A DNA stretch of 64,000 nucleotides. Origin: a virus. Location: the IMG/VR virus record IMGVR_UViG_3300045988_181996; one strand, given 5' to 3'. This document shows positions 9,970-27,250 of the stretch, one piece after another; positions within the stretch are counted from its first letter, which is position 1; each line of letters begins with the position of its first letter. The translations under genes and the position numbers were made by a program. The notes below the pieces were generated by a model. It saw only the letters and a list, made by a program, of their open reading frames with translations, was not told where the DNA came from and did no database searches.

Positions 9970-11463
9970 TTAATTTTCTGAATTATTTATTTCAGATTCA
10001 ACTTCACCAGTTTGTTCTACAACTTCAATCGTCTCAGCTTGTTTAATTCCACGAGCCATTGCACGTCCTTGAACAGTTCCAGTTAAAGTATCTTGAATTA
10101 GGTTTTGGATATTAAGTCCAAGACCTTTATTAATTTGTTCAGTTGTTGTCATAATATCACCAACTAGTTTAGATGAATTACCCTCACCAAACATAGTGAT
10201 TGAATCAATTCTACTAAGTGGTTCAGCAACTGCACGAGCAATTTCTGGTAATTTATCAAGAACCATTTCAAGCTTACCTGCGTCTTGTAATTTAAGCATT
10301 GCTTCTGCTTTTTTATTTAACCCTTCTGCTTCAGCTTCTAATGTTAATCTAATTCTTTCAGCTTCAGCACGACCTTCTTTTTCAATAGCGATTGCATTTT
10401 GTTCAGCCGCATATCTTTCAGCTTCTGCACGAGCTTTAATTGCATCAGCTTCTTTTTCAGCTTCAAATTTTTCAGCTTCAGCTTGGTTCATTCTTTCAAT
10501 TTTTTCAGCTTCTGCTTGTTGTTGCCTAGCATATTTTTCAGCGTCTGCTTGTTTTTTGATCTCAGCAGAAAGTTTTTCTTCCATTACTTTAACGTTACGG
10601 TTTTGAATTTCCGCTTCTTTTTCAGCTTTAACGATATTAGCTTCAGCAGTTTGTCGTTCAATTTCTTTACGTTGAGCTTGTTGTTCAATTTCATATGAAG
10701 CGTCTGCTTGAGCACGTTTAACCTCAGATGCAGTTTTTAACTGAGCTTTTTTAATCTCAAGTTCATTGTTTCGTTGTGCAATTTCTAAATCCGCATCAAC
10801 ACGAGCATCATTAGCAATTTTACTACTTTTAGCTTCTTGTTCAGCTACTTCTTGAAGTGCAATAGCTTTAGCAATAGCAGCATCTTTTCTAATTCTTTCA
10901 GTGTTATCGATACCTAAGTTTTTAATAACATCGTTTTTATCGATAACATTTTGAATGTTAAATGCAACTATTTCTAATCCCATTTCTTCTAAATCTTTGG
11001 TAGCATTTTCTTGAACTTGTGTTGAAAAAGTTACTTTATCTTGAACAATTTCTTTAATATCCATTCGACCAATAATAGCACGAAGGTGTCCTTCTAATGT
11101 ATCACGAACTTCATTTGAAATTTGTTCAGGATCTTTATATAAAAAGTTACGAATAGCTGATTTAAATAACTCAGGTCTTTCAACTCCGATTCTAACTTTA
11201 ATAGCAGCATCAACTTTAACTTCAATAAAGTCTTTTGTAGTAACAAAATCAGTTGTTTTAGCATCAATTGAAATCATTTCTGCTGTCATTGTATCAACTC
11301 GTTCTAAAATTGGTATTTTCCAACCTGTTCTACCATGTAATACCCTTTGTTTTCTCCATCCAGAAATAACCTTAATCTCACGTGGAGACGCAGAAACAAA
11401 ACCTGTTAGAAAAAGTAAACCAGCAAGGATTACTCCTAATAAAATTAAAATAATAGTAACCAT
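9970..11463 (-). CDS. flotillin-like SPFH/band-7 protein with Ala/Glu-rich coiled-coil repeats, 497 aa
   Basis: N-terminal TM helix. SPFH core. Long 'AEAEK' heptad-like repeat region. Length and layout like B. subtilis FloT/YuaG. Confidence 0.8.
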   Translation of the reverse strand: MVTIILILLGVILAGLLFLTGFVSASPREIKVISGWRKQRVLHGRTGWKIPILERVDTMTAEMISIDAKTTDFVTTKDFIEVKVDAAIKVRIGVERPELFKSAIRNFLYKDPEQISNEVRDTLEGHLRAIIGRMDIKEIVQDKVTFSTQVQENATKDLEEMGLEIVAFNIQNVIDKNDVIKNLGIDNTERIRKDAAIAKAIALQEVAEQEAKSSKIANDARVDADLEIAQRNNELEIKKAQLKTASEVKRAQADASYEIEQQAQRKEIERQTAEANIVKAEKEAEIQNRNVKVMEEKLSAEIKKQADAEKYARQQQAEAEKIERMNQAEAEKFEAEKEADAIKARAEAERYAAEQNAIAIEKEGRAEAERIRLTLEAEAEGLNKKAEAMLKLQDAGKLEMVLDKLPEIARAVAEPLSRIDSITMFGEGNSSKLVGDIMTTTEQINKGLGLNIQNLIQDTLTGTVQGRAMARGIKQAETIEVVEQTGEVESEINNSEN

Positions 11464-11547: not shown

Positions 11548-11814
11548 TTAAACCTTCAAATTAATTGATTCTAAAAATTCATAATCTTCTTTACTTAATT
11601 TAATTACTTCACCATTATCATTAACTAATGTCGCATTTTCATAAAAAGAATCATATTCTAATTTAAAAATTTGAGGTTTATATTTACTTATATTTTCATT
11701 TACATATTTATATTCTTTTGGAAGTTTATCAATTACAACTGCTACATAAAACATACTCAAATGTGTATATTTTATGATCCTATCATTAAATTTTTGAAAT
11801 TCTTTCTGCTTCAA
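11548..11814 (-). CDS. hypothetical 88-aa protein upstream of flotillin (possible short NfeD-like partner)
   Basis: Position immediately 5' of the SPFH gene. Weak similarity only. Confidence 0.35.
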   Translation of the reverse strand: MKQKEFQKFNDRIIKYTHLSMFYVAVVIDKLPKEYKYVNENISKYKPQIFKLEYDSFYENATLVNDNGEVIKLSKEDYEFLESINLKV

Positions 11815-11923
11815 CCCGTCTGATTTTGTCGTAAAAATGAATAATCATCATTACTGACTACTTTCATTTGATGTGACGATCCACAGACTTAACTTTCCGT
11901 ATAACCCACGGTAGTGACAATAT

Positions 11924-13102
11924 TTATACTGTAGTCAAAACAGTGTAGTTTTGACATTGTTCTAAGTTTAGAGATGCGTTTATATCTCGGTCGTGAACAA
12001 CGCTACATTTTGGACATGTCCAAGTACGTTCTTTTAATTTTAACTCTGTGTTTTTATACCCACAACAAGAACATAACTTGCTAGAAGGGTAGAAACGTGG
12101 AGCTAAACGTAGTTCAATCCCTAGTTTTTCACATTGGTTAGTTAAGAACAATCTTGACATATACCATTGTGCATTGGAAATTGTTTTAGATAAATGTTTA
12201 TTTTTCATTAGACTTTTTATATTCAAGTCTTCAATAGTTATAAAACTTGGTTTTTGTTTCATAATTGATTGTAGAGCTTTTTGATTATAATCAGTTCTAA
12301 TTCTTGTTATTCTTTCATAAAGTTTATTAACAAGTCTTTGATTTTTATTTAAATTTTTACATTCTCTCAAAGGGCGATTCCAATTAAAACTTTTTAATTG
12401 TCCTTTTTTCTTTCCTGTCTTGTAATAAACTTTATTAATCATGTTGTGTTCATATTTACGTGACAATGCACGTTGTTTTTGTTTTAACTTTTTCTCAAGT
12501 TTTATAACTCGTTTTGATTTGTTAATAGACGGTATCGTTTCATTTTTTGTAATGAATTGGTTTTTTATTCCAAAATCAATACCTATACCATGTGTAGAGG
12601 TAACGGTTTGTTTGATATTCACTTCATCAGTTAAACAAGAAACAAAGTAACGTCCATTTTTCATAGAAACAGTGACAGATTTAACATTATTCGGTATATA
12701 ACCAAATTCTTTTAATCGAACCCATTTTAGTTTAGGTAAAAAAATACGATGTCTTTCAACTTTTATTGTACCAATTAAATAGAAACTATTATTTTTTGAT
12801 TTCTTTTTAAAATTTGGTTTTCCTTTTTTACCATTTAAATAATCCCACATTGCTTTATGACCGTTCATTATTGCTTGTTTTATAGCTTTACTAGGTGACT
12901 TAATTAACCAATCAGGTCTATTTGGATCGTTATTTATCATCTTTGAATAATCATATCCTGAGATAATAGGTTGATTATTTTCTAAACGTTTAAAATTATA
13001 ACTGATAAATTGATTATAAATGTATCTAGTATTACCAAACGTTTGATGTATTAAATTAATTTGTTCTTTATTGGGTTTGATTTCTGTCTTGTAAGCTTTC
13101 AT
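11924..13102 (-). CDS. tnpB: second, divergent IS200/IS605-family TnpB, 392 aa
   Basis: 'RFYPSSKLCSCCGYKNTELKLKERTWTCPKCSVVHDRDINASLNL' zinc finger. 'ITIEDLNIKSLMKNKHLSK' RuvC-II-like. No tnpA. Confidence 0.85.
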   Translation of the reverse strand: MKAYKTEIKPNKEQINLIHQTFGNTRYIYNQFISYNFKRLENNQPIISGYDYSKMINNDPNRPDWLIKSPSKAIKQAIMNGHKAMWDYLNGKKGKPNFKKKSKNNSFYLIGTIKVERHRIFLPKLKWVRLKEFGYIPNNVKSVTVSMKNGRYFVSCLTDEVNIKQTVTSTHGIGIDFGIKNQFITKNETIPSINKSKRVIKLEKKLKQKQRALSRKYEHNMINKVYYKTGKKKGQLKSFNWNRPLRECKNLNKNQRLVNKLYERITRIRTDYNQKALQSIMKQKPSFITIEDLNIKSLMKNKHLSKTISNAQWYMSRLFLTNQCEKLGIELRLAPRFYPSSKLCSCCGYKNTELKLKERTWTCPKCSVVHDRDINASLNLEQCQNYTVLTTV

Positions 13103-13800: not shown

Positions 13801-14388
13801 TTAAAATACTCGAACTCCCATTAATGAATCTTCAGTAAAATTACCTACTGCACGGGAGTCTTGACTTACATCTCTATTATCACCTAATACAAAATAATGT
13901 CCTTCTGGTACAATAGTATCAAAATTAACAGTTTTAAATAGATGAATATTATTTTCATCTAAATATTTTTCTTCATATTTTACATTATTTACATATAAAA
14001 CACCGTCTATTACTGTTACTCTATCTCCTGGTAACCCGATTACACGTTTAACAATGTTTTTACTCTCACCACCATCAACTAATCGTTCTTTAAATACTGC
14101 TATATCAAATCTATCCACTCGCTCTTTTTTTAATAACATGTACTCACCATCTTTTAATGTTGGTAACATTGACGGACCGTCTACTTTAACTAATGTAAAA
14201 TTTATTCTAAATAACATTACAATCATGATAATTACTAAAAATACTGTAACATCTTTAACAGGTGAATGTAATTTTTTATGGTTATATATACTAACTTCAC
14301 TTTCATCAACACCCATAGCTTCTGCTAATTCTTTATTACGCTTTTTTAAATATTCATCATCTTTTTTATATCTATCAAAAATACCCAA
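13801..14388 (-). CDS. lepB: type I signal peptidase (SipS/LepB family), 195 aa
   Basis: Boxes 'GPSMLPTL', 'KRVIGLPGDRV', 'YFVLGDNRDVSQDSR' with catalytic Ser/Lys context. Confidence 0.85.
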   Translation of the reverse strand: MGIFDRYKKDDEYLKKRNKELAEAMGVDESEVSIYNHKKLHSPVKDVTVFLVIIMIVMLFRINFTLVKVDGPSMLPTLKDGEYMLLKKERVDRFDIAVFKERLVDGGESKNIVKRVIGLPGDRVTVIDGVLYVNNVKYEEKYLDENNIHLFKTVNFDTIVPEGHYFVLGDNRDVSQDSRAVGNFTEDSLMGVRVF

Positions 14389-16644: not shown

Positions 16645-16962
16645 TTGTTACCCTTAGTTGTTCTCCCTAGTTGTTACTCTTAGTTGTTCTCCTTAGTTGT
16701 TACTCTTAGTTGTTCTCCTTAGTTGTTACCCTTAGTTGTTACCCTTAGTTGTTACCCTTAGTTGTTACCCTTAGTTGTTCTCCTTAGTTGTTCTACTTAG
16801 TTGTTCTCACTAGTTGTTCTCCCTAGTTGTTCTACTTAGTTGTTCTACTTAGTTGTTCTCACTAATTGTTCTCCCTAGTTGTTCTCACTAGTTGTTCTAC
16901 TTAGTTGTTCTCACTAGTTGTTCTCCCTAGTTGTTCTCACTAGTTGTTACCCTTAGTTGTTA
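16645..16962. repeat. iteron array 1: ~24 tandem copies of a 13-bp unit YTAGTTGTTMYYC
   Basis: Read directly from the sequence. No unique spacers between units, so not CRISPR. Confidence 0.9.
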
Positions 16963-17071: not shown

Positions 17072-18073
17072 ATGGAAAAGAAAAAATCAGTTAAATTATC
17101 TGATATTTCAATAGATCAAATTAAAAGAAGTAAAAAAATAAAGAAAACTCCTTTAATTGAAGAAAAAATAAATGAAGAAACTCAAACACCTACTACTCAA
17201 GCTGACAATGAAGAACTTGGTAAAGCTGGAGAATATGTACCAGTCGAAGACGATGCTATAATTGAGATGTTTGAAACTAACAATGAAGAAAGTTTTGAAG
17301 AAATAGAACATGCAGTTATAGAAGAAACTAAAACACCTAACAATGAAATAGTTAACCCTATGGAAAGTATAGAACTTATTGATGATATTACAGATGAAGA
17401 TATTAATGCAACAAATCAACCTAAAAATAGTTTCTTTAAAGAAATAATTAATGAGTTCAAATCATATTCATTAACATTTAAACTATTTACGTTTCTTTCA
17501 ATCATTCTTGTTGGAATATTAATTGCAATTAGTGTTTATTTTTACAAGAAAACACCGAAAAATGTTGAACAACAAGAACAACCTAAACAAGAAGTTAAAC
17601 AAGAAGTTAAACAAGAAGAAAAAACAGAAGATGATAGTAAATCAGAAAAAGAAAAACTTCAATCCAAACTTGAAGATAGTGTTAAATCAATTAACACACC
17701 TACTAAAGTTGCAACAGAAGATTTATTTGGTGGATATATATTAGGTAGTACTACTTATTATCCTGATGACCCACAAAAACTTTATATTGATTTCACTATC
17801 AAACCACCTAAAGAAAAACAACCACAAGCTGATGATGAAACTGCTCTGAAAATTCTAAAAACTTTAAAATCGACTTTACCTAAAATAAACGAAACTATTG
17901 AAGTTAAAGATAAATCTAAAGTTACTATGGAAATTTATAAACAAAAATCAGAATATCAAACTATTCTATTATATGACGGTAAACCATTTGCTTATGTTTC
18001 AACTGATAAAGACCTTGTTTCAACTAACCATGTTACTGGTGAATATGTCTCAAAAGTTGCTAAAGACGCTTAA
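17072..18073 (+). CDS. membrane-anchored protein, acidic N-terminus, single TM, extracytoplasmic C-domain, 333 aa
   Basis: TM 'FTFLSIILVGILIAISVYFY'. KQEVKQE repeats. Confidence 0.5.
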   Translation: MEKKKSVKLSDISIDQIKRSKKIKKTPLIEEKINEETQTPTTQADNEELGKAGEYVPVEDDAIIEMFETNNEESFEEIEHAVIEETKTPNNEIVNPMESIELIDDITDEDINATNQPKNSFFKEIINEFKSYSLTFKLFTFLSIILVGILIAISVYFYKKTPKNVEQQEQPKQEVKQEVKQEEKTEDDSKSEKEKLQSKLEDSVKSINTPTKVATEDLFGGYILGSTTYYPDDPQKLYIDFTIKPPKEKQPQADDETALKILKTLKSTLPKINETIEVKDKSKVTMEIYKQKSEYQTILLYDGKPFAYVSTDKDLVSTNHVTGEYVSKVAKDA

Positions 18074-18210
18074 TAATAAAAAGTACTACAAACACACTTG
18101 TAGTACTCTTTTTTTATATTAAAAAAGTCTCCAGAAAAACTCGTCTGTATTAATTTTTCGTGGTATCTTAGTCTCCACAAAAACTTATCCGAAGAATTTT
18201 ATCAAATTTT

Positions 18211-18320
18211 TTACCTGTGGTATTTTATATAAAAAATTACTACCTACGGTATTTTATTTAAAAATTTATTACATCACGTATTTTATTCAAAAAAATAACC
18301 TACAAATGTATTTTCATCAT
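18211..18320. repeat. four ~26-bp direct repeats ACCTRYGGTATTTTATWTAAAAAWTT
   Basis: Seen in sequence, in the non-coding 18.1-19.25 kb region. Confidence 0.7.
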
Positions 18321-18429
18321 ACACCCCTAACATACTTTGTATTTTTATTAGCAAGTCTATTACTTTGTATTATCATCATAATAATAAATTATACTAGTAT
18401 AATTATATTACTCATCAGGATATACTAAC

Positions 18430-18542
18430 TCGCTTAGAATATTATCATTCTAGGATTTACTTAATCAGTATTTAATATTATTATTCTAGGTAATATCTAA
18501 CTATCTAAGAATATTACCCTTCTAGGTAATACTTAATTAGGA
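18430..18542. repeat. three ~35-bp direct repeats (..AATATTAYYCTTCTAGGTAATACTTAA..)
   Basis: Seen in sequence. Confidence 0.7.
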
Positions 18543-19155
18543 AAAAATATACTGTACTATTTTTTACTCAAATCGCAAGGAATGTTGCTTCCTTATTTCA
18601 ATTTCTAATTAAGTAGAAATTATAAAACCCTATTAAAAACTTGAAGCGGCAAGATCATCAAAAAAAAAATAAAAAGATAAAAACATTTAAAAAAAATAAT
18701 GACTTAATATATCAAAAAATCTCCTGTTATTAAAATTTACCGATGCAATTTTATTAATTCGATCTTTTAAGTGAACCCCTACCTTTAAAATTCTCACAAC
18801 TAAATTTACCTTTAAAATAACTAATTAAAACATCATCAAAATAACATTTTAGCAAACTCCCTCACAAAAAAAATACAACTAAATAAAAAAATTCCATTCA
18901 AATAAAATTTTTAAGACGCATTTAAACACCCTTCTCGCTTTGATGAAATACTTTCTGGTATAATTGGTCCAAAAAATATTTTACGACGATTCTAGGGGTA
19001 TAGAAATAGCTCCTAGAGGGTGATTCATTATTTTTGTATATAGTATATTTCGGATAATGACATTTTAACAAAATTATTTAATAAACGTCTACATTTGTCG
19101 TTATCTATTTAACCTTCTTATCCTAATTGGTAATAATATATTTATCGCTGCAAAA

Positions 19156-19210
19156 CGTAATTCTACGAATTACTTAAAAATAAGTTAGGCATAGCCTAAA
19201 ACCCTTTAAC
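19156..19210 (+). promoter_or_regulatory. hairpin motif copy 1: CGTAATTCTACGAATTAC + TTAGGCATAGCCTAA + ACCCTTTAAC upstream of the 19252 gene
   Basis: Two palindromes plus a conserved ACCCTTTAA box. Recurs five times before plus-strand genes. Confidence 0.6.
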
Positions 19211-19251
19211 TCGAAAATATTAATTAAATAAATGTTTGGAGGGTTACCGCT

Positions 19252-19659
19252 ATGAGTTCTACTAAACCATGGATTAAATTCACGCAAGATTATAATAAAG
19301 GTAAATATTCTTACTACAAAAAATCTTATAAAAACCACGACTACTACGTTGTAATTAACCACTTATTCGCACTATGTGGTTATGTCGAAGACACTCTATC
19401 AAGACCTCAAGAACGTTATTTCTTTGATCCATATGAATACGACTTAGATGTTCACGGTGGTGTTACTTATAATGGTGAAGCTTATTTCAATAAAAAAGAT
19501 AAACGCTTATTTATCGGATTTGATTGTGCTCACGCTTGTGATAACGTACCTAAACTATCTTACATTGGTGAAAATCTACCATGGCGAAATGAAAAATATG
19601 TTGAACGTCAATGTAGAAAACTTATTAATCAACTAATAAAATTAAAAGGAGAGCTTTAA
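19252..19659 (+). CDS. hypothetical protein 135 aa (conserved His/Cys/Asp cluster 'HGGVTY..GFDCAHACD')
   Basis: GGAGGG RBS. First gene of the plus-strand cluster. Confidence 0.55.
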   Translation: MSSTKPWIKFTQDYNKGKYSYYKKSYKNHDYYVVINHLFALCGYVEDTLSRPQERYFFDPYEYDLDVHGGVTYNGEAYFNKKDKRLFIGFDCAHACDNVPKLSYIGENLPWRNEKYVERQCRKLINQLIKLKGEL

Positions 19660-19660
19660 T

Positions 19661-19846
19661 ATGACTACTACATACTACTTTATTCAACACCCTACTGAAA
19701 ACCTTTATCGTGAAGACTATACTCTATTTACTTCAATTGATAAATTAAAAAAAGCTAATTCAATTGAAGAAGACTCGAAAATATTCTCAGTTGAAATTAA
19801 TAACAAATATCAAATTATTGGTACTCCTACTGAAATAACTATTTAA
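19661..19846 (+). CDS. hypothetical 61 aa
   Basis: AAAGGAGAG RBS. Translationally coupled to the preceding gene. Confidence 0.45.
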   Translation: MTTTYYFIQHPTENLYREDYTLFTSIDKLKKANSIEEDSKIFSVEINNKYQIIGTPTEITI

Positions 19847-19860
19847 AAGGAGATTTAATC

Positions 19861-20115
19861 ATGAAAACATTTATGGACATAATTATCTACTTACTTGGTT
19901 CAATTATTATTCTTTTTGTGTTTGGATTCCCTTTATTTGTTGCTGCACACTACGGCTCACTAAAAGAAAAAATTAAAAAAATCAATGAAGAAAGTAAAAA
20001 ACTTGATGACGAAATCGCTAAAATTGATTCTTTCACTCGCTCTATTAAAGGTGCTACAAACACTGACTATATCAAGGAACAACAAAAAATGCATTTCCCT
20101 GATAAATTTAATTAA
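19861..20115 (+). CDS. small membrane protein 84 aa
   Basis: AAAGGAGA RBS. TM 'IIIYLLGSIIILFVFGFPLFVAA'. Confidence 0.5.
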   Translation: MKTFMDIIIYLLGSIIILFVFGFPLFVAAHYGSLKEKIKKINEESKKLDDEIAKIDSFTRSIKGATNTDYIKEQQKMHFPDKFN

Positions 20116-20138
20116 AATTAAAAAAAGGAGATTTTATT

Positions 20139-20246
20139 ATGCTTGAATTTATTAAAGCACTCGCTGGAGGTTTTATGTTACTCTTACTAATATTCATGGG
20201 TGGTTATGCCGCTGGTGGATTCTGGGAAGATAACGATAAAAAATAA
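20139..20246 (+). CDS. 35-aa hydrophobic peptide (MLEFIKALAGGFMLLLLIFMGGYAAGGFWEDNDKK)
   Basis: AAAAGGAGA RBS 8 nt upstream. Not in the ORF track. Confidence 0.3.
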   Translation: MLEFIKALAGGFMLLLLIFMGGYAAGGFWEDNDKK

Positions 20247-20404
20247 AAAATTATGAAAAAATTATTAAACATTTACTTAAAACGCTTTGTTAAATACTTT
20301 GTTGGAAGAATTCTTTACATAACTAACTTTAAGTTATTAGCTAAATTCTTCCAACTATTTAATATCTACAAACTATTTAAAATTCTACACAGGAGGTAAT
20401 TAAT

Positions 20405-20869
20405 ATGAGTAATACAATCAAACTATCTACAACTCACCAAACTCACGATTTCCTTAGTCGTTTGAATGAACAACAAAAACTTGAACATGAAATCTATCAG
20501 TTTGTTAGATCTATTGAAATGAAAAACCATACATTAGATAGATTCCGTTCAAAGTTTATTGAGCTTTATTGGAATAATAATTTCTACACACCTAATAAAA
20601 ATTCTTACTTGAAATTATTTGTTACTCTTATTAATCACCTTCAAAATGCTGAACTTGAGTGTCATATTAAAGACATTTCGTGGTTTAGTGATGTTATTAA
20701 ACAAGCTAAACTTAACCCTATTAATTACTCATCTAATTTCGATGAATATTATGAATTTACTTTCCTTGACTATAATAAAAGTTTATTCAACGAATCAACT
20801 AAAAACATCACATTAAAACTAACTTTAAGAGTTATTGATAACCACCTATATGGAATTATTTTACAATAA
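20405..20869 (+). CDS. hypothetical protein 154 aa
   Basis: CAGGAGG RBS. Confidence 0.55.
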   Translation: MSNTIKLSTTHQTHDFLSRLNEQQKLEHEIYQFVRSIEMKNHTLDRFRSKFIELYWNNNFYTPNKNSYLKLFVTLINHLQNAELECHIKDISWFSDVIKQAKLNPINYSSNFDEYYEFTFLDYNKSLFNESTKNITLKLTLRVIDNHLYGIILQ

Positions 20870-20888
20870 ACTAAAGGAGAAATAACAA

Positions 20889-21068
20889 TGGCTAAATTTA
20901 TTAAAATTGATGACAAAATTATTAATGTTGACCATATAGCTTTCATTGTTGAAAGTGAAAACATATATGATGAAAAATACACGAAATTTTTCTTAACTCA
21001 TGGTTTCGTTAATACTAAATTAAAATTAGATGAAGTCTATAAATTAATCGAAGATTGTTCTAGTTAAT
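20889..21068 (+). CDS. hypothetical 59 aa (MAKFIKIDDKIINVDHIAF...)
   Basis: AAAGGAGA RBS. Hand-translated. Below the ORF-track cut-off. Confidence 0.4.
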
Positions 21069-21096
21069 ACTTAACTCTTAATCTTTCGCTTATAAT

Positions 21097-21151
21097 CGTA
21101 ATTCTACGAATTACTCAAAAACCAATTAGGCTTCGCCTAATACCCCTTAAC
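21097..21151 (+). promoter_or_regulatory. hairpin motif copy 2: CGTAATTCTACGAATTAC + TTAGGCTTCGCCTAA + TACCCCTTAAC
   Basis: Near-identical to copy 1. Confidence 0.6.
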
Positions 21152-21187
21152 TTTTGAAATTTATTTTATTAATTGGAGGTTTTATAC

Positions 21188-21700
21188 ATGACTACTAAAT
21201 ACTTTATTGACGGTTCTTTCCAAACTATTAATGATCACGAAATCTGCGGATTTGCTTGTGCTGTTATAAACCCTGACGGTTCTATCGAAGAACTTAAAGG
21301 TGCTAAAGAATTCGAAAACCATTCTAATAACATCACTAGTGAATTACAAGCTTGTTACGTTGCTTTATATCACGCTATTACTAATAATATTAAAGATATC
21401 GAAATCTATCACGACTTACAAGGTACTAGTGCTTGGGCTAACGGTACTTGGAAAGCTAAAAAAGATGAAACTAAAAAATATGCTCAATACGTTAACGCTA
21501 TGAAACAACAATACGATTTAAATATCAAATTCATTAAAGTTGCTGGTCACTCTGGTGTTAAATACAATGATTTAGCTGACTCTTTAGCTGACCAAGCTGT
21601 AAAAGAATATGCTATGAAAAACAACATCTTACCAACTTTTGAATTTAACGAAGCTGATGAAGTTGAACAACCTATAGCTATGTTCAACCCATTAGCTTAA
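21188..21700 (+). CDS. RNase H (RNase HI-like fold), ~170 aa
   Basis: DEDD catalytic set aligned to E. coli RnhA: 'YFIDGS', 'SELQACYVAL', 'IYHDLQ', 'VAGHSGVKYNDLADSLA'. GGAGG RBS 8 nt before the 21188 ATG (the ORF track start at 21173 is less likely). Confidence 0.8.
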   Translation: MTTKYFIDGSFQTINDHEICGFACAVINPDGSIEELKGAKEFENHSNNITSELQACYVALYHAITNNIKDIEIYHDLQGTSAWANGTWKAKKDETKKYAQYVNAMKQQYDLNIKFIKVAGHSGVKYNDLADSLADQAVKEYAMKNNILPTFEFNEADEVEQPIAMFNPLA

Positions 21701-21718
21701 TATTAATAATTTATATCA

Positions 21719-21744
21719 AGGGGTTCTTATGAACCCCTTATTTT
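21719..21744 (+). terminator. rho-independent terminator GGGGTTCttatGAACCCC + T-run
   Basis: 7-bp GC stem followed by TTATTTT. Confidence 0.7.
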
Positions 21745-21754
21745 GGAGTTTATT

Positions 21755-22156
21755 ATGTACATCATACTACCTTTTAACGCAAATCATAACTCACACGCTG
21801 TAGAGGTTTATTCTAAAATTAAGGATATTCCTTTCCCAACCAACGTACCTGTACGTTGTTATCGTCTTAATAAAAAAATCTATAATGAGTTAGAGCTTAA
21901 TTATTACAATATCCACAAGGATTACTCTCACTCAGTTACTCTACCACGTTTTCAAATTGCTTATGAAGTACCTATCTATAAACACGAACTTCATAAAAAG
22001 TTTAACGTTTCTAAAACTGAACTTATCGCTATTTACGAAAATCACGTAAAAGAACTTAATTATCTATCAGATAACACTATTCTCTTACTTTGGAAACTTA
22101 AAATGCATCCTGAAATAATCGCTAATAGTAAATTAGCTCATTTGCTTAAATATTAA
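21755..22156 (+). CDS. hypothetical 133 aa
   Basis: GGAG 6 nt before the ATG at 21755 (the ORF track uses a TTG at 21743). Confidence 0.5.
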   Translation: MYIILPFNANHNSHAVEVYSKIKDIPFPTNVPVRCYRLNKKIYNELELNYYNIHKDYSHSVTLPRFQIAYEVPIYKHELHKKFNVSKTELIAIYENHVKELNYLSDNTILLLWKLKMHPEIIANSKLAHLLKY

Positions 22157-22166
22157 GGAGTTTATT

Positions 22167-22553
22167 ATGAATTACATTCTTAGAAATTACCCAAATAACA
22201 ATATTCGTAAACTACTTTGTCCTTATCAACATTCAAAACTTAAAAAAATAAACTATACTTACTACAACCGTTTACGTGAGTTTATTACTTCTAAAGATTT
22301 TAAATGTATATTTTATCTATCTATTAAAAACAACGAAATCATCGAACTTGATGTTGTAACTCACCACCAAGCACAAGTTCTAAACTTGTTTAATAACATT
22401 AAACAGGATTTAAAACCTATTAAAAAAGGTACTTGGTACGTTACTAAACTTGAATATGGTTATTTAGTTTTCCCTAAACTAAACATACCTTTCAACAACA
22501 ACCAATGCTTCTATTTTGAATGTAACTCATTCTACGATTCACTTATATTCTAG
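22167..22553 (+). CDS. hypothetical 128 aa
   Basis: AAGGAG RBS. Confidence 0.5.
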   Translation: MNYILRNYPNNNIRKLLCPYQHSKLKKINYTYYNRLREFITSKDFKCIFYLSIKNNEIIELDVVTHHQAQVLNLFNNIKQDLKPIKKGTWYVTKLEYGYLVFPKLNIPFNNNQCFYFECNSFYDSLIF

Positions 22554-22567
22554 GAGGTTTTCTAACC

Positions 22568-22939
22568 ATGAAATCTACTATCGCAAATCTATTACTTCAA
22601 ATTAATTCTATCAATGAAAAAATTAAAGTCATTGAAAAAGAGTTACAATCAAATATCAAAAATAACATTATTGATACTTTCCTTACAGATTTTATTGGTT
22701 TTAAATCATTCCAACCAAATTACGATTCTAAAATCTGTACGTTCAAATTAATTGATTTAAACACTCTTGATGTCGGTACGATTCTACCTACCGAAACTCT
22801 AGGGCTTTTCAATAATAACACTCTATTTTTTAACGTTTATACTGAAAATATTAATTTCTCACTTAATCTACATACTCTTTGGATTTATAAAAAAGATAAC
22901 GTTGTTACTGAAATTTTCTACACTAAACTTATAAACTAA
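22568..22939 (+). CDS. hypothetical 123 aa
   Basis: AGGAGG RBS. Confidence 0.5.
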   Translation: MKSTIANLLLQINSINEKIKVIEKELQSNIKNNIIDTFLTDFIGFKSFQPNYDSKICTFKLIDLNTLDVGTILPTETLGLFNNNTLFFNVYTENINFSLNLHTLWIYKKDNVVTEIFYTKLIN

Positions 22940-22949
22940 AAGTAACCAT

Positions 22950-23020
22950 TTAACTTGCACCCGCTAATACATACGTATTAGCTGGAAAACCAGTTAAGTT
23001 GCACCTAATACCCTTTAATC
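22950..23020 (+). promoter_or_regulatory. hairpin motif copy 3: TTAACTTGCACC ... GCTAATACATACGTATTAGC ... GTTAAGTTGCACC + TAATACCCTTTAATC
   Basis: 20-bp perfect palindrome flanked by 12-bp direct repeats, then the ACCCTTTAA box. Confidence 0.55.
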
Positions 23021-23057
23021 TATGAAAAAAAATTAAAACAAATTAAGGAGTCATATC

Positions 23058-23201
23058 ATGAAAATTAAAGTTAAACCATCTTATAAATACAAAATGTCTA
23101 ATGATGAATTACAAGATTACCTTAAAATGAAGAAGTCTGGTGCTTCTAAAACTAAAAATGGTCGTGCTTATTCACGTAAAAATTATAAAATCAATTATTA
23201 A
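23058..23201 (+). CDS. 47-aa basic peptide (MKIKVKPSYKYKMSNDELQDYLKMKKSGASKTKNGRAYSRKNYKINY)
   Basis: AAGGAG RBS. Hand-translated. Confidence 0.35.
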   Translation: MKIKVKPSYKYKMSNDELQDYLKMKKSGASKTKNGRAYSRKNYKINY

Positions 23202-23243
23202 AAAAAAAATATTAATTGATCTAAGTATTACATACTTATCATT

Positions 23244-23272
23244 TAGTTAGGTCACCCTAACACCCTTTAATC
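23244..23272 (+). promoter_or_regulatory. hairpin motif copy 4: TTAGTTAGGTCACCCTAA + CACCCTTTAATC
   Basis: Motif family, upstream of ssb1. Confidence 0.5.
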
Positions 23273-23310
23273 TAAAAAAAATAATAATCAAATAAAGAGA
23301 GGTTCTATTT

Positions 23311-23742
23311 ATGTTAAACAAATTTTTATTCACTGGAAGACTTACTGATAACGCTACACTTAAAAACACTTCTAAAAATGTCTTAGTTACTACTTTTTCT
23401 ATCGCTAATAACGAAAAAGTTAAAGATAAAGATATCACTACTTTCCTACCTGTTACGTTCTTCCCAAAAAGTACTAAACAAATGGAATTGCTTGCTAAAG
23501 GTAATTTAGTTACTGTTGAAGGACATTTTGCTACTAGTCAATTTACTGACCAATCTGGAAAAAATCAAGTTCGTACTGAATTTATCGTTGATAAATTTGA
23601 CTTACTTGCTCGTGTTAAATCTGTTGAACCTAAAAATGAATTCGTTAGTGCTGACAGTTACCAAGACGATTATGTTCCTGTTATGCCTGAATACATGGAA
23701 GATGATGCGTCTGTTGAATTATTCAACCCTATCGAAGATTAA
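23311..23742 (+). CDS. ssb: single-stranded DNA-binding protein (paralog 1), 143 aa, acidic C-tail ...DDASVELFNPIED
   Basis: Aligns with B. subtilis SSB: 'MLNKFLFTGRLTDNATLK..TTFSIANNE' and 'LAKGNLVTVEGHFATSQFTDQSGKNQVRTEFIVDKFDLL'. Confidence 0.85.
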   Translation: MLNKFLFTGRLTDNATLKNTSKNVLVTTFSIANNEKVKDKDITTFLPVTFFPKSTKQMELLAKGNLVTVEGHFATSQFTDQSGKNQVRTEFIVDKFDLLARVKSVEPKNEFVSADSYQDDYVPVMPEYMEDDASVELFNPIED

Positions 23743-23796
23743 TTTCTTTGACACTTATTCTTATATATGATATACTAGTTAAGTATAAAAGTCTAT

Positions 23797-23826
23797 GACG
23801 GGTGTTCTTTTAACACCCGTTATCTT
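23797..23826 (+). terminator. rho-independent terminator ACGGGTGTTcttttAACACCCGT + TATCTT
   Basis: 9-bp stem. Weak U-tract. Confidence 0.55.
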
Positions 23827-23857
23827 ATGTTGTTAGTTATAAAAGGAGGATATTCAT

Positions 23858-24097
23858 ATGTCAATTTTTAATGCAATTCAAAAGTTATTCACTAAATCTT
23901 TTGCTTCTGATAAATCTCTTACACAGCTTTACAAAGAAGAAAAAGATGTTATGCGTTTACTTCATTCTCTACCTGAAAATGAACGCAAATTCATTGTTGA
24001 ACGTGTTATGAAAAATTATCCAGGTGATAAAAATTTCAATAAAACACTTTTTAACGAAACTACTAAAATTCTTAAAAAAGATAAAGAGTTGAGCTAA
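23858..24097 (+). CDS. hypothetical 79 aa
   Basis: AAAGGAGG RBS. Confidence 0.5.
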   Translation: MSIFNAIQKLFTKSFASDKSLTQLYKEEKDVMRLLHSLPENERKFIVERVMKNYPGDKNFNKTLFNETTKILKKDKELS

Positions 24098-24173
24098 TCA
24101 TGGCTACAGCTCTTTTTTATTTAATCACAATATTAATCTGTATGCAAGATTAAATTTATTTCAAGGAGCTATT

Positions 24174-24506
24174 ATGGATAAATTCATTATTACTAACACC
24201 AATGACTTTAACTACCCTTATCTCATTACTCTTACTCATATAAAAAATAACAATGTTATTGATACACTAAAAGATTTAACTCTACCTAATCTAGCTAATA
24301 AAAAAATTATTATCGATACTCACCTAGTCTCAGATGATCATTCTAAAAGATTTTTATCTACTGTTGTTACTTACAACGAATCTATTAATACTGATAATTT
24401 AAATTATACTCTAGTTACTTATAATGACCCGTTAATGAAACTTGCCACTAATATTATTAATGATATTAAGTTGAAATTCTTTGTTTCATTTATTGATAAA
24501 TTATAA
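24174..24506 (+). CDS. hypothetical 110 aa
   Basis: CAAGGAG RBS. Confidence 0.45.
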   Translation: MDKFIITNTNDFNYPYLITLTHIKNNNVIDTLKDLTLPNLANKKIIIDTHLVSDDHSKRFLSTVVTYNESINTDNLNYTLVTYNDPLMKLATNIINDIKLKFFVSFIDKL

Positions 24507-24619
24507 CAAATTTTTCCTACCCTGAAAAAATCCCTTGTGTTTAATCCTTGACCTGAATACGTCTTTAAACTGTTCAATTTTTATTACGTGACAATTATAC
24601 TAATTGTCATAAAAACCAA

Positions 24620-24645
24620 TTAGGCTTTGCCTAACACCCTTTTAA
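24620..24645 (+). promoter_or_regulatory. hairpin motif copy 5: TTAGGCTTTGCCTAA + CACCCTTTTA, preceded by TTGACCTGAATACGTC box at 24549
   Basis: Motif family. TTGACCTGARTAYGTC is also present at 25611. Confidence 0.55.
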
Positions 24646-24685
24646 TTATGAAAAAATAAAAAAAATAAAGTGAGGTACAAAACTT

Positions 24686-25105
24686 ATGATTAAATTTAAT
24701 ACAATTACAACTACTGGTAACTTAGCAAGCAATATCCGTTTCTACGGAAAAGATAATTCAGCCGCTGAAATCGTTGTTTATGATTCAACTCGTAAAGAAA
24801 CACCTGTTCGTCATACGGCTTTCCTTAAAGACGCAGCACTTAAATCTATCGCTCCTAAATTAGTTAAAGGTGCTTTCGTTGCGATTGAAGGACATTTAGT
24901 TCCTAGACCGTCTACTAAAGAAAATCCTGATAATAACACTGATATTATCGTTGACTCTATCCGTTTCTTAAACAACCCTCTTAAAAATCGTAAACCAGCA
25001 GAAATTCCTGCTCTTAAAGTTGAAGACGACTTTGAAGTAGTTCAAGAAACTCCTGAAGTTCTTGATGAAAAACCTAAAAGAGGTCGTAAAAAAGCTACTA
25101 AATAA
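24686..25105 (+). CDS. ssb: SSB-like OB-fold protein (paralog 2), 139 aa, basic C-tail
   Basis: 'TGNLASN..' and 'LVKGAFVAIEGHLVPR' align to SSB strands. Lacks the acidic tip. Confidence 0.65.
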   Translation: MIKFNTITTTGNLASNIRFYGKDNSAAEIVVYDSTRKETPVRHTAFLKDAALKSIAPKLVKGAFVAIEGHLVPRPSTKENPDNNTDIIVDSIRFLNNPLKNRKPAEIPALKVEDDFEVVQETPEVLDEKPKRGRKKATK

Positions 25106-25286
25106 TAAATAATCTCTTAACAGTACTTAGACTGAGCTCTTACGCTTAGTCTTTGTACTGCACTTTGCTTGTGTGGGTTACTGTGATTTGCACAAGTTGG
25201 TTCAACTCCAACTACAAGCCAATCCTCCTCCTAATGAGGACTATTAACCAAATTAACTTTAACATTAAAAAAAGGTGGACAATTAT

Positions 25287-25598
25287 ATGATTATTAATCA
25301 ATTAACTGAAAATAACCATAAAAATAATATAGCGACTAATCTAAGACAAGTCATTTCTCATAAAAATAACGAATATCACATCGTCTTTGATTATCGTATC
25401 GGCAACCAAATTAAAAGTGCCAAGCTTACTTCTAATTTCTCTGATGAGGGTATCAAATACCTTTTACCTGATAACCCTACTCGTGAAGATATTCAGGCTC
25501 AAGCTAATGCTCTTGCCAATAAATACATTAAACAAGCTATATTATGCAAATCTCAAAAAGTTAAAAGTAATTACCATATAATTTTACCACCTAAATAA
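25287..25598 (+). CDS. hypothetical 103 aa
   Basis: AAAGGTGG RBS 7 nt before the ATG at 25287 (the ORF track GTG start at 25275 is unlikely). Confidence 0.45.
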   Translation: MIINQLTENNHKNNIATNLRQVISHKNNEYHIVFDYRIGNQIKSAKLTSNFSDEGIKYLLPDNPTREDIQAQANALANKYIKQAILCKSQKVKSNYHIILPPK

Positions 25599-25687
25599 TA
25601 AAAAAAAAACATTGACCTGAGTATGTCATTAAAAGACTTAAAATATAAAATAATAAATTAAAATATTAAGAAAAGAGGTATATATTT

Positions 25688-25999
25688 ATGACAATTTTAT
25701 TAACAGGACACATCTCAAGAAAAGAAACAGCAGTTGCTAAAACAGGGAAAGTTGCTTTCAACCAAGTTGCTTGTACTAACATCTATACTAAAAAAGACGG
25801 TACTCAAGTTGAAGATACTCAATTCATTAACTTCGCTATCCCTTCTAAATTCGAAAAACTTTGGAAACACCTTGATAAAGGTCAATTAGTTACTGTTGTT
25901 GCTCACATCGAACAATGGAAATCTACTAATGAAAAAGGTGAAAATCGCTATACTCAAATGGTTGTAGCTGACTCTATCGGGTTAGGCTCTGCTAAATAA
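25688..25999 (+). CDS. ssb: SSB-like OB-fold protein (paralog 3), 103 aa, no C-terminal tail
   Basis: 'TQFINFAIPSKFEKLWKHLDKGQLVTVVAHIEQ' vs SSB '[33 protein letters not shown]'. Confidence 0.7.
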   Translation: MTILLTGHISRKETAVAKTGKVAFNQVACTNIYTKKDGTQVEDTQFINFAIPSKFEKLWKHLDKGQLVTVVAHIEQWKSTNEKGENRYTQMVVADSIGLGSAK

Positions 26000-26005
26000 T
26001 TTATT

Positions 26006-26036
26006 AAAGACCACTATAAGTGGTCTTTTTTATTTT
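26006..26036 (+). terminator. rho-independent terminator AGACCACtataaGTGGTCT + T6
   Basis: 7-bp stem plus T-run directly after ssb3. Confidence 0.75.
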
Positions 26037-26233
26037 ACGGAAATCCTACGTATTTCCTACGGTGGTGACATGGCTTCGCATTAATGTCACGCTTAAAAAA
26101 AACAGTTACCCTTATCTTATTTATTTAATGGTGTAACTGTTTTTTTTATTTGTACAATTAACTCCGTTAATTGTTTTATTAAATTGCAATAGCCTACGCC
26201 TATTGCTATTATTTAAAATAATTATTCAAATTT

Positions 26234-26472
26234 GTTACCCTTAGTTGTTCTCCCTAGTTGTTACCACCAGTTGTTACCCTTAGTTGTTACCACTAGTTGT
26301 TACCACTAGTTGTTCTCCCTAGTTGTTCCCCCTAATTGTCACTCTTAGTTGTTCTCCCTAGTTGTTCCCCCTAATTGTTACTACTAGTTGTTACTACTAG
26401 TTGTTACCCTTAGTTGTTACCACTAGTTGTTACTACTAGTTGTTACCCTTAGTTGTTACCACTAGTTGTTAC
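26234..26472. repeat. iteron array 2: ~18 tandem copies of the same 13-bp YTAGTTGTTMYYC unit as array 1
   Basis: Seen in sequence. Same orientation as array 1, 9.3 kb away. Confidence 0.9.
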
Positions 26473-26564
26473 TTCACTTTGCTTTACCTATTAAAAAACT
26501 ATATTTGATTAAAAATATTTCGATCTCGATACCAAAATATACTTTATTATTAACATTAACTATA

Positions 26565-26690
26565 TCTCTTATATAAATCAATTATATTAATCTCTTATAT
26601 AAACACATTATATAAACACCTTATATAAAAACCTTATATAATCACTATATAAACACCTTATATTAACACCTTATATTAATCAAATTCATA
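26565..26690. repeat. second iteron family: ~9 copies of ~12-bp (C)ACCTTATATAAA(C) preceded by an AT-rich stretch
   Basis: Seen in sequence. Confidence 0.8.
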
Positions 26691-26824
26691 AACACCTTTA
26701 AAAAAAACGCAATTCCTACGTAATTGCTTATATTGGTTCGTGGCTTCGCATTAACTCACTTCCTGATTCATTACTTGAATCAGTCTTCGGTCAAACTCGT
26801 CTCAAACTCCTTTGACATAAGGAA

Positions 26825-27047
26825 CTCCCCCCCCTTTTTTGTTAATAATTATATGAAATTTATTTTGTTGAAAAGTATTAGTTGAGTGTTAGTTGAAATT
26901 ATTTGAAAAAATATTATATCGGGAAATTATATAGATGATTTCTAAAAATAATTTATGGGCAAATTTTATTTGAGGGAATTATTATATGAATATATTATGT
27001 CCATTATTTTTTATTCCCTCAATTTATTTTTTTAATAGGGGGGGAGT
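26825..27047. repeat. element bounded by inverted ACTC8 / G7AGT homopolymer repeats with an inner TTGAGGGAAT/ATTCCCTCAA inverted repeat
   Basis: C8 at 26827-26834 and G7 at 27038-27044, in ~27% GC DNA. Confidence 0.6.
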
Positions 27048-27250
27048 AAAAGAGCATAAGAGAAAATATAATTCAAATTAACTAAAATCCTTATTATAAA
27101 ACAAATATATTATATATCAAAAATCAACTATTTTTTTTAATATTTAAAATGAATTTTAATATAAATATAAAAAAATAACCTACACATTAAATATAATATG
27201 TAAGTTATTTTATAAATTTAATATTTATAATTTTTATGGTTTATAAATTT

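Follow-up and report, generated by a model that had tools for sequence, protein, structure and literature searches.

Three single-stranded DNA-binding protein paralogs with different C-termini are kept together on a conjugative plasmid-like element

Introduction

Firmicutes such as Bacillus subtilis (SsbA and SsbB) and Staphylococcus aureus (SsbA, SsbB and SsbC) possess several SSBs (proteins that bind single-stranded DNA) of the OB-fold family PF00436 per replicon or cell, of which one has an acidic tail. B. subtilis SsbB, of 113 aa, is tail-less, and S. aureus SsbB and SsbC, which have no acidic tip, fail to stimulate PriA (PMC5945547). These sets and the SSBs of conjugative plasmids are the nearest known counterparts of the proteins described here. 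Here we describe a comparable set of three paralogs, SSB1, SSB2 and SSB3, encoded on the IMG/VR virus record IMGVR_UViG_3300045988_181996, a stretch of 64,000 nucleotides that is called the window below. Unlike the Firmicute sets, this trio occupies a 2.7-kb stretch of a conjugative plasmid-like element, its acidic member (SSB1) is without the canonical tip, and SSB2 has a basic C-terminus, which is undescribed for those paralogs. New here are the tight, conserved trio on one mobile element, the acidic member with its non-canonical end, and an orphan SSB-like family with a tail made of an acidic linker and a basic end.

SSBs are also found on conjugative plasmids such as F and ColIb-P9. They constitute a recurrent class of leading-region genes (PMC11541004), and type IV secretion systems (T4SS) can translocate SSB (PMC8406263). 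Like these proteins, the trio is encoded on a conjugative element and plausibly serves the transferred strand. The SSBs of F-type plasmids are close homologs of Escherichia coli SSB with the canonical tip and are present in one copy, whereas three divergent copies are found here. Against the plasmid-SSB model NF010292 (F/IncI-type, PRK13732), SSB1 scored 15 bits for a cut-off of 265, and SSB2 and SSB3 gave no match.

A case described from a Gram-positive host is PrgE of the Enterococcus plasmid pCF10, an OB-fold protein of 144 aa with an acidic C-terminus that forms bead-on-a-string filaments and has equal affinity for double-stranded and single-stranded DNA (ssDNA) (PMC11137577). As a small OB-fold protein of a Gram-positive conjugative plasmid with non-classical DNA binding, PrgE serves as a working analogy for SSB2. 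Kinship with PrgE was rejected for all three SSB families (hhalign probability 0.1%, hmmsearch E ≥0.025), and prgE lies inside the T4SS operon whereas the trio lies in a separate accessory block. PriB, an SSB-derived primosomal protein that forms a tail-less OB dimer and is restricted to some Proteobacteria, was considered as a counterpart of SSB3 and rejected, since only SSB models, and no PriB family or structure, were among the SSB3 matches. With SSB3 (103 aa), PriB (~104 aa) shares its size and a bare SSB-type OB domain without a tail (PMC8509808).

Results

Three SSB-family genes are conserved in two clades of metagenomic elements

The three genes correspond exactly to open reading frames (ORFs) of the window (Table 1), each with a Shine-Dalgarno site upstream, and they are the only SSB-like ORFs in it. 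SSB1 scored 62.3 bits against Pfam PF00436 (gathering threshold 26; OB domain of ~104 residues) and 63.9 bits against TIGR00621, the canonical bacterial SSB model (cut-off 53.95), and matched PHROG 44 with an E-value of 6e-24. It also matched 25 solved SSBs, the best being SsbA/SsbB-type chains from S. aureus and B. subtilis (E 2e-8). Judged by these profiles, SSB1 is unambiguously an SSB. SSB3 passed the Pfam threshold as well (33.0 bits) and matched PHROG 44 (E 8e-11), the solved structures that it matched best were SSBs, and its TIGR00621 score of 30.1 bits lay below the cut-off. SSB2 probably joins the family by remote homology, as detailed below. A sequence-only reading of the window had proposed three divergent SSB paralogs at these positions, and this proposal was borne out. 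All three stayed below the cut-offs of the NCBIfam equivalogs of SsbA or SsbB type. An assignment of SSB3 as SsbB-type was rejected: it scored 16 bits (cut-off 189) against NF005242, a 112-residue SSB model that we take to represent the SsbB type, and its locus is on a conjugative element and not in the com regulon, so the likeness is architectural only.

The trio, its order and its three types of C-terminus are kept in two clades of metagenomic elements of 130-250 kb. The order of the three genes recurs in at least 15 related loci of these clades. At least nine loci of clade 1, on metagenomic contigs of 134-247 kb, and eight loci of clade 2 share the order SSB1, orfA79, (orfB110), SSB2, orfC, SSB3, terminator, hairpins, 13-bp array and convergent topoisomerase gene, the last being seen in the clade-1 loci and in those clade-2 loci that reach that far. 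Wherever a related locus spans the trio, all three SSB genes are intact.

The three C-termini are of different kinds, and the canonical DDD[IL]PF-COOH tip with its free Phe carboxylate is missing from SSB1 (in both clades), SSB2 and SSB3. The SSB1 tail has a net charge of -9 over its 43 residues and ends in EDDASVELFNPIED (SVELFNPIED); its clade-2 ortholog ends in EAFAPVDPFVEA (...FAPVDPFVEA), and the tails of both clades have in common acidic residues and an F-x-P-[IV] element. SSB2 carries an acidic linker followed by EKPKRGRKKATK (...KRGRKKATK), with a net charge of +6 over the last 10 residues. Within the tail of SSB2, this basic end shows the highest conservation: the motif is kept between clades at 46% overall identity, and in clade 2 the end EKPKRxRK is invariant except in one frameshifted copy. 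SSB3 stops 3-5 residues past the OB domain with the end ...SIGLGSAK, and ...IGLG(S)AK is found in both clades. The basic Lys-rich tail and the tail-less form that the sequence-only reading had attributed to two of the SSBs were thus found, the former behind an acidic linker; its acidic tip on the remaining SSB holds as an acidic tail and not as the canonical tip. Its claim that the basic-tailed and tail-less proteins should be unable to use classical SSB-Ct docking also agrees with the sequences, as neither has the canonical acidic tip.

Two observations concern the SSB2 tail. An AT-hook was ruled out, as GRP is missing from the core, which reads RGRK (clade 1) or RTRK (clade 2). In the relative L015 (2449-2892) the basic tail is replaced by the frameshifted sequence NLNVLVNLLKKAK, through either an assembly error or decay of a single copy.

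The earlier reading had proposed alignment with chromosomal SSBs as a check, and its outcome differed among the three proteins. The four aromatic positions that stack on ssDNA (W40, W54, F60 and W88 in E. coli SSB, F37, F48, F54 and Y82 in S. aureus SsbA) were scored by alignment to these two proteins. SSB1 has V/F/F/F at these positions (3/4 aromatic) and SSB3 has Y/F/P/S, with F50 and W78 nearby (2-3/4). SSB2 has gap/P/F/S (1/4; in clade 2, 2/4 plus a Tyr two residues off), and its L23 loop is ~11 residues shorter. SSB1 and SSB3 therefore look fit for classical ssDNA binding and SSB2 not obviously so; as a remote homolog with 1-2/4 aromatics and a shortened L23 loop, SSB2 should not be assumed to bind ssDNA.

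The ratios of nonsynonymous to synonymous substitution (dN/dS) within the two clades were 0.05 and 0.15 for SSB1, 0.30 and 0.34 for SSB2, and 0.10 and 0.28 for SSB3, and 0.04-0.07 for orfC. Because the SSB values lie between 0.05 and 0.34, all three genes are under purifying selection within clades and are maintained. Between clades, the proportion of nonsynonymous differences (pN) was 0.46 for SSB1, 0.34 for SSB2 and 0.46 for SSB3, compared with 0.13 for the topoisomerase and 0.03 for o137; between-clade dN/dS was left uninterpreted, as synonymous sites are near saturation (proportion of synonymous differences, pS, ~0.5, similar across genes). The SSBs are the fastest-diverging genes of the neighbourhood, at 3-4 times the level of the topoisomerase, and yet are conserved within lineages. 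The divergence forms an extreme mosaic within 5 kb, with identities of 96% for o137 and 80% for the topoisomerase versus 32% for SSB1 and 35% for SSB3. The fast change of the SSBs hints at an arms-race or partner-switching component, and the fact that they diverge rapidly in parallel suggests that they adapt to partners in the host or evade host sensors that detect foreign SSB. Parallel divergence would also be expected if the three SSBs interact.

A proposed division of roles among the SSBs

On balance, we lean towards the view that SSB1, SSB2 and SSB3 are true paralogs within the bacterial SSB OB-fold family PF00436, each under its own regulation, and make up a sub-functionalised set handling the element's own ssDNA, that is, the transfer strand, its conversion to duplex and probably replication intermediates. 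Specialisation is favoured over redundancy because the distinct tails are kept across clades and the genes are under purifying selection. Separate control of the three genes is indicated by their differing upstream elements and by the terminator-like hairpins that follow SSB1 and SSB3.

From the sequences we infer a division of labour in ssDNA binding in which the tails would act by different mechanisms. SSB1 would be a conventional ssDNA coat, whose acidic tail probably recruits partners through the non-canonical motif E-x-F-x-P-[IV]-[DE]. SSB3 would be a bare coat that, like B. subtilis SsbB, neither recruits host partners nor competes for them. SSB2 would have a derived OB domain, in which most stacking aromatics and a portion of the L23 loop were lost, and would have acquired the acidic linker and the basic end; it may bind nucleic acid mainly electrostatically through this end, and the linker could fold back as an internal, auto-inhibitory brake. 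The neighbouring RNase H-like protein, the convergent type IA topoisomerase and the strand-specific hairpins would fit the priming, coating and finishing of complementary-strand synthesis.

Several results weigh against this interpretation. SSB2 shows the most relaxed constraint of the trio (dN/dS ~0.3), the SSB1 tail motif is based on two clades only, and a between-clade change 3-4 times faster than that of the topoisomerase (pN 0.34-0.46 vs 0.13) is not predicted by a simple housekeeping role. The SSB genes are interleaved with unrelated small genes and form no tight operon, the functional link between them being drawn from co-conservation only. Moreover, SSB2 scored 13.2 bits against the Pfam SSB model (E 0.09), below the threshold of 26, and matched no NCBIfam model, TIGR00621 included. 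AlphaFold2 modelled it with a predicted local distance difference test (pLDDT) of 47.9 from the single sequence and 44.4 from a 3-sequence alignment, and a Foldseek search with the first of these low-confidence models returned noise only.

Position of the trio with respect to transfer

Judged by the MobL, VirD4-type, topoisomerase and other proteins that it encodes, the window belongs to a large plasmid-like conjugative element whose host is a low-GC Gram-positive bacterium. The two constituents by which MobL (pLS20-type) conjugative elements are recognised, a relaxase domain and a T4SS coupling protein, were both found (Table 1), and the topoisomerase is 29% identical to topoisomerases of Firmicute conjugative plasmids. 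The most likely candidate for the origin of transfer (oriT) is a non-coding gap densely filled with TTGTCCA/TGGACA repeats, both direct and inverted, and containing CTTGGTACATCTAT twice, which occupies the same position as the oriT of pLS20 (PMC5313138). If this candidate is read as in pLS20, the transferred strand (T-strand) would be the + strand of the window, which is sense for the SSBs, and the SSB block would enter the recipient last.

The trio could instead belong to a leading region, although we consider this doubtful. The block would then enter the recipient first and be transcribed early from the T-strand, with the hairpins serving as ssDNA promoters, and the SSBs would shield the strand as it enters and dampen SOS or defence responses of the host, like the Ssb proteins of F and ColIb-P9. 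SSBs are indeed enriched in plasmid leading regions, beside ssDNA promoters and with the T-strand as template (PMC11541004), and the block has several features expected of such a region: it is unidirectional, contains small and mostly uncharacterised genes, varies in content, and has hairpins of conserved orientation upstream of its genes. Fast divergence between clades also fits an arms race, and the hairpin cluster and arrays past SSB3, towards which the genes point, could form an oriT; a site at 26037-26700 could in principle take this role and would favour a leading-region location. However, the gap upstream of the auxiliary-protein and MobL genes is the better oriT candidate, as in pLS20, and the position of the block at the trailing end by this analogy disfavours a leading-region or anti-restriction role. 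No match to ArdA, PsiB, Acr or a methyltransferase was found among the subset of block proteins that was scanned, and no Frpo-like long hairpin was seen.

These results bear on the specialised roles that the sequence-only reading had suggested, namely ssDNA protection during transfer, anti-restriction or regulation. Specialisation as such agrees with the conserved, distinct tails and the purifying selection, and ssDNA handling in transfer is plausible for a conjugative element. The anti-restriction role is unsupported, given the absence of such families among the scanned block proteins and the trailing position of the block by analogy with pLS20.

SSB2 as a probable remote member of the SSB family

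We are fairly confident, on the strength of profile comparisons, that SSB2 has a real but remote SSB-type OB domain. Family profiles were built after the second clade had been recovered from metagenomes. Aligned with hhalign, the SSB2 family matched the SSB1 family with a probability of 94.7% (E 6e-8, 99 columns spanning the entire OB domain) and the SSB3 family with 88% (E 3e-6); the SSB1 and SSB3 families matched each other with 97.5% (E 6e-12), and five unrelated neighbouring gene families used as controls gave at most 0.8%. Each of the three family hidden Markov models found just the other two among all window ORFs. One member of the SSB2 family matched the Pfam SSB model with E 4e-4, and P0004, a relative of SSB2, matched PHROG 44 with E 2e-4.

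An unrelated small basic protein, whose matches are due to chance or composition, would leave two SSB paralogs only, and we regard this as improbable. Apart from the scores and models listed above, it could account for a tRNA_anti-codon OB match in Pfam that is as weak as the SSB match, for the failure of the single SSB2 sequence to find any solved structure in the PDB, and for the lack of a BLASTP match between SSB2 and SSB3. Against the single S. aureus SsbA sequence, hhalign gave the SSB2 family a probability of 4% (P 0.0098), over 90 columns of the OB domain. PDB searches with the SSB2 profile reached only marginal E-values of 0.04-1.4, but SSBs made up 7 of the 8 and 8 of the 9 top matches and were aligned end to end. 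Chance or composition would also have to explain the family-level matches against the near-zero controls and the presence in SSB2 of the SSB hallmark KG-x-V-x-(V/I/L)-(E/D)-G-x-L. Furthermore, both AlphaFold2 models, despite their low confidence, are beta-rich with a single helix between beta-3 and beta-4, an order compatible with the SSB-type OB fold, a five-stranded beta-barrel with a helix at this place.

The SSB2 family appears to be an orphan, with no annotated relatives in the collections searched. An exhaustive HMMER search of 1.84 billion representative proteins returned two clusters of relatives, a 96% twin and P0004 (48% identity), and one further match of 1860 aa, which was spurious. 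Word-indexed homolog searches with each of the three SSBs found only relatives of >90% identity. Nothing was found by tblastn with SSB2 and P0004 among plasmids and phages, and tblastn with SSB3 found one phage SSB (32%) and no plasmid match. GTDB species representatives scanned with the SSB2 profile and with the topoisomerase likewise yielded nothing.

Complex formation, export and drift as less likely possibilities

The three paralogs might also form one hetero-oligomeric SSB resembling replication protein A (RPA), in which SSB1 would supply an acidic recruiting tail, SSB2 a basic tail pairing with that of SSB1 or with DNA, and SSB3 a bare OB domain. Complementary tail charges, strict co-occurrence in a fixed order in two clades, and a between-clade divergence that is similarly raised in all three (pN 0.34-0.46), as for co-evolving partners, are consistent with such a complex. 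We nevertheless consider it unlikely: the genes are not translationally coupled, and unrelated genes, a terminator and differing upstream elements lie between them. To our knowledge, no heteromeric SSB has been described in bacteria.

VirE2 of Agrobacterium coats ssDNA and is exported by a T4SS, and the recognised signal of VirB/D4 substrates such as this protein is a positively charged C-terminus. By analogy, the basic C-terminus of SSB2 might be a secretion signal with which SSB2 is exported along with the DNA to coat the T-strand in the recipient, a proposal to which we give little credence. It would fit the conservation of the basic end, which exceeds that of the rest of the tail, and the large VirD4-type coupling protein encoded nearby. 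On the other hand, a short Lys/Arg patch is equally explained by DNA binding, the SSB2 tail of L015 is frameshifted, and in Gram-positive T4SS we know of translocation signals defined for relaxases only. A precedent exists in the F-type T4SS, which moves plasmid-encoded SSB, PsiB and other proteins into recipients (PMC8406263). The likeness to VirE2 is functional only, as that protein is large, is not of the SSB-type OB fold and has no sequence relationship with SSB2, whose export is conjecture.

Finally, neutral drift of redundant duplicates, with tail differences reflecting decay and no specialisation, is very improbable: plasmid SSBs are often dispensable, PrgE for instance not being required for pCF10 conjugation (PMC11137577), and SSB2 has lost aromatic residues under relaxed constraint, but the trio is intact wherever it is spanned, within-clade dN/dS is well below 1, and each tail type is preserved across clades with just 32-46% identity.

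Layout of the block and of the surrounding element

Small + strand genes make up a 9-kb block that contains the SSB genes and the RNase H-like gene and differs in content among relatives. Between SSB1 and SSB2, orfA79, which matched no family in Pfam or PHROG, keeps its position in clade 2, and orfB110 is restricted to clade 1; the latter gave a weak, sub-threshold match to an RnlB antitoxin (E 0.0024). Always found between SSB2 and SSB3, orfC matched no Pfam, PHROG or NCBIfam family.

A recurrent module precedes five genes of the block. Its first part is a hairpin whose loop is of the CTACG type; there follow, in order, an A-run, a TTAGG(C)-nnn-(G)CCTAA hairpin (TTAGGCnnnGCCTAA), the motif (C/T)ACCCTTTAAYT, an A-rich stretch and a ribosome-binding site (RBS). 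The sequence TTAGGCNNNGCCTAA occurs three times, always within the small-gene block, against 0.05 occurrences expected. Clade-2 loci have 4-5 CTACG-loop hairpins each. Because the asymmetric loop is always in the orientation of the gene, in both clades, a strand-specific role in RNA or ssDNA is suggested, and not that of a symmetric operator. The element upstream of SSB3 differs, being a conserved TTGACC... that is found before SSB2 in clade 2.

Just past the SSB3 terminator lies a cluster of four hairpins with CTACG and GGCTTCGCATTA loops and covarying stems. In this cluster 98% of cells are paired, and sliding the pairing lowers this to 32-49%; G-U pairs are absent, and four pairs show compensatory changes between clades. 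It matched no Rfam family and is a candidate for either an ssDNA structure (a single-strand origin or initiation site, sso/ssi, or an alternative oriT) or a structured RNA.

Two 13-bp tandem arrays with the same core and orientation flank the entire + strand block. Both are kept in related elements, with 14-32 copies and a clade-specific consensus (TAGTTGTTACCCT vs TAGTCGTTCTACA), which implies a co-evolving DNA-binding protein. They may function like a centromere or like iterons; no protein of the window was recognised as Par or Rep. A non-coding gap of 1.25 kb separates the convergent gene blocks and also holds an AT-rich array, which adjoins the downstream one and resembles a DNA-unwinding element. 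A replication origin in this gap (26-27.2 kb) was considered and is unsupported, as GC skew does not change sign anywhere in the window. Further along the gap, 200 bp of AT-rich sequence are bounded by a 10-nt inverted repeat with C-run and G-run (ACTCCCCCCC ... GGGGGGGAGT). This segment contains an internal 19-nt hairpin, is accompanied by a near-consensus - strand promoter and might be either a gene for a small RNA or a miniature mobile element. In the relative L014 (12687-14848) the topoisomerase gene is split into many short ORFs, again by assembly error or decay of a single copy.

The GC content of the window ranges from 23 to 34% (27% for the uncultured element), and there is no tRNA gene. 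The window had no close match in PLSDB, INPHARED, GTDB representatives or IMG/VR, and no plasmid or phage match to the region was found by megablast. It also encodes a ClpB-like AAA+ protein, a DUF5906 protein and two TnpB (OrfB_IS605/Cas12f-like) proteins. Directly downstream of one TnpB gene lies a RAGATH-18 RNA, as would fit a TnpB of the IS605 type with its guide RNA. In the relative L013, a TnpB element lies just upstream of orfA79, where SSB1 would be expected.

The window further encodes a set of surface and secretion proteins, which comprises an antigen I/II-type adhesin, a SecA-like ATPase, a protein of 1236 aa whose C-terminus carries a metallopeptidase motif, an S26 signal peptidase and a flotillin-like protein. 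This set recalls reports on the oral giant elements called Inocles (PMC12340149). The Inocle marker InoC is a protein of ~454 aa with a PF13814 replication-relaxation domain, and Inocle-delta has ~245 kb and 24% GC (PMC12340149). Neither PF13814 nor InoC was found among the window ORFs scanned, the 64-kb window representing at most one third of the element. The size of the related contigs (134-247 kb) and the 27% GC resemble those of Inocle-delta, so that a home among the oral Inocles is plausible, as a lead only.

Table 1. Features of the window, ordered by position, with protein identity between the two clades.
Feature	Position	Strand	Identity between clades	Remarks
TnpB gene (second)	38-1276	-		
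Flotillin-like protein	9970-11463	-		
RAGATH-18 RNA	11803-11887	-		69 bits (gathering score 44.9)
TnpB gene	11924-13102	-		
S26 signal peptidase	13801-14388	-		
Upstream 13-bp tandem array	16652-16961	+		~24 copies; core TAGTTGTT (TAGTTGTT[AC]C)
Small-gene block	17072-25999	+		
Recurrent module before o135	19159-19211			
Recurrent module before RNase H	21100-21152			
RNase H-like gene	21173-21700	+	50%	Pfam RVT_3 3e-7; PHROG 531 'Rnase H' 1e-27
o137	21743-22156		96%	
Recurrent module before o47	22960-23020			o47 has 47 codons
Recurrent module before SSB1	23231-23272	+		hairpin TTAGG-TCAC-CCTAA, then CACCCTTTAATC, A-rich stretch, RBS
SSB1	23311-23742	+	32%	143 aa; SSB OB domain (residues 1-100), 43-residue acidic tail
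orfA79 promoter	23748-23776			strong, near-consensus sigma-A type, TTGACA-17-TATACT with TG
12-bp-stem hairpin	23795-23823	+		downstream of SSB1; terminator-like, also orfA79 leader
orfA79	23858-24097	+	45%	
orfB110	24174-24506	+		missing from clade-2 loci
Recurrent module before SSB2	24590-24648	+		hairpin GACAATT-ATAC-TAATTGTC, A-run, hairpin TTAGGC-TTT-GCCTAA, then CACCCTTTTAATT
SSB2	24686-25105	+	46%	139 aa; remote SSB-like OB domain (~residues 4-97), acidic linker, basic C-terminal end
orfC	25287-25598	+	65%	103 aa
SSB3	25688-25999	+	35%	103 aa; bare SSB OB domain, no linker or tail
Intrinsic terminator	26006-26028	+		closes SSB block; conserved in both clades
Four-hairpin cluster	26037-26190	+		
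Downstream 13-bp tandem array	26232-26472	+		~18 copies
AT-rich 13-bp tandem array	26569-26695			~10 copies of TTATATAAACACC
Partial second copy of hairpin cluster	26707-26754			
AT-rich segment with inverted repeat	26822-27052			
Promoter near AT-rich segment	27120-27093	-		
Type IA topoisomerase	27251-29695	-	80%	Toprim + Topoisom_bac; convergent with SSB block
MobL-family relaxase domain protein	33191-34048	-		Pfam PF18555 53.2 bits (threshold 28.5)
oriT candidate	34846-35590			750-bp non-coding gap upstream of 264-aa auxiliary-protein ORF and MobL relaxase
Antigen I/II-type adhesin	38295-41573	-		
VirD4-type coupling protein	41684-45466	-		T4SS-DNA_transf 68.4 bits; TraG-D_C 47.2 bits
SecA-like ATPase	48738-51074	-		
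1236-aa protein with metallopeptidase motif	51193-54903	-		

Discussion

SSB is usually seen as one protein with one docking tip, and here a mobile element keeps three versions with three different C-termini under selection across deeply diverged clades. Should the proteins prove to be ordinary coats, the trio would simply be a well-documented new set of paralogs. If SSB2 binds DNA, it would represent a new SSB architecture, and an RPA-like complex, if real, would give the plasmid an ssDNA platform of its own, shielded from the SSB interactome of the host and from its sensors of foreign SSB.

The SSB biology of Gram-positive plasmids is almost unstudied, PrgE being the sole characterised case. 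In this respect, the trio offers a natural system in which the roles of the tail and of the OB domain in plasmid transfer and establishment could be separated in Gram-positive bacteria. Moreover, the faster divergence of the SSBs suggests host-specific partners or sensors, and this bears on the spread of giant plasmids in the human microbiome.

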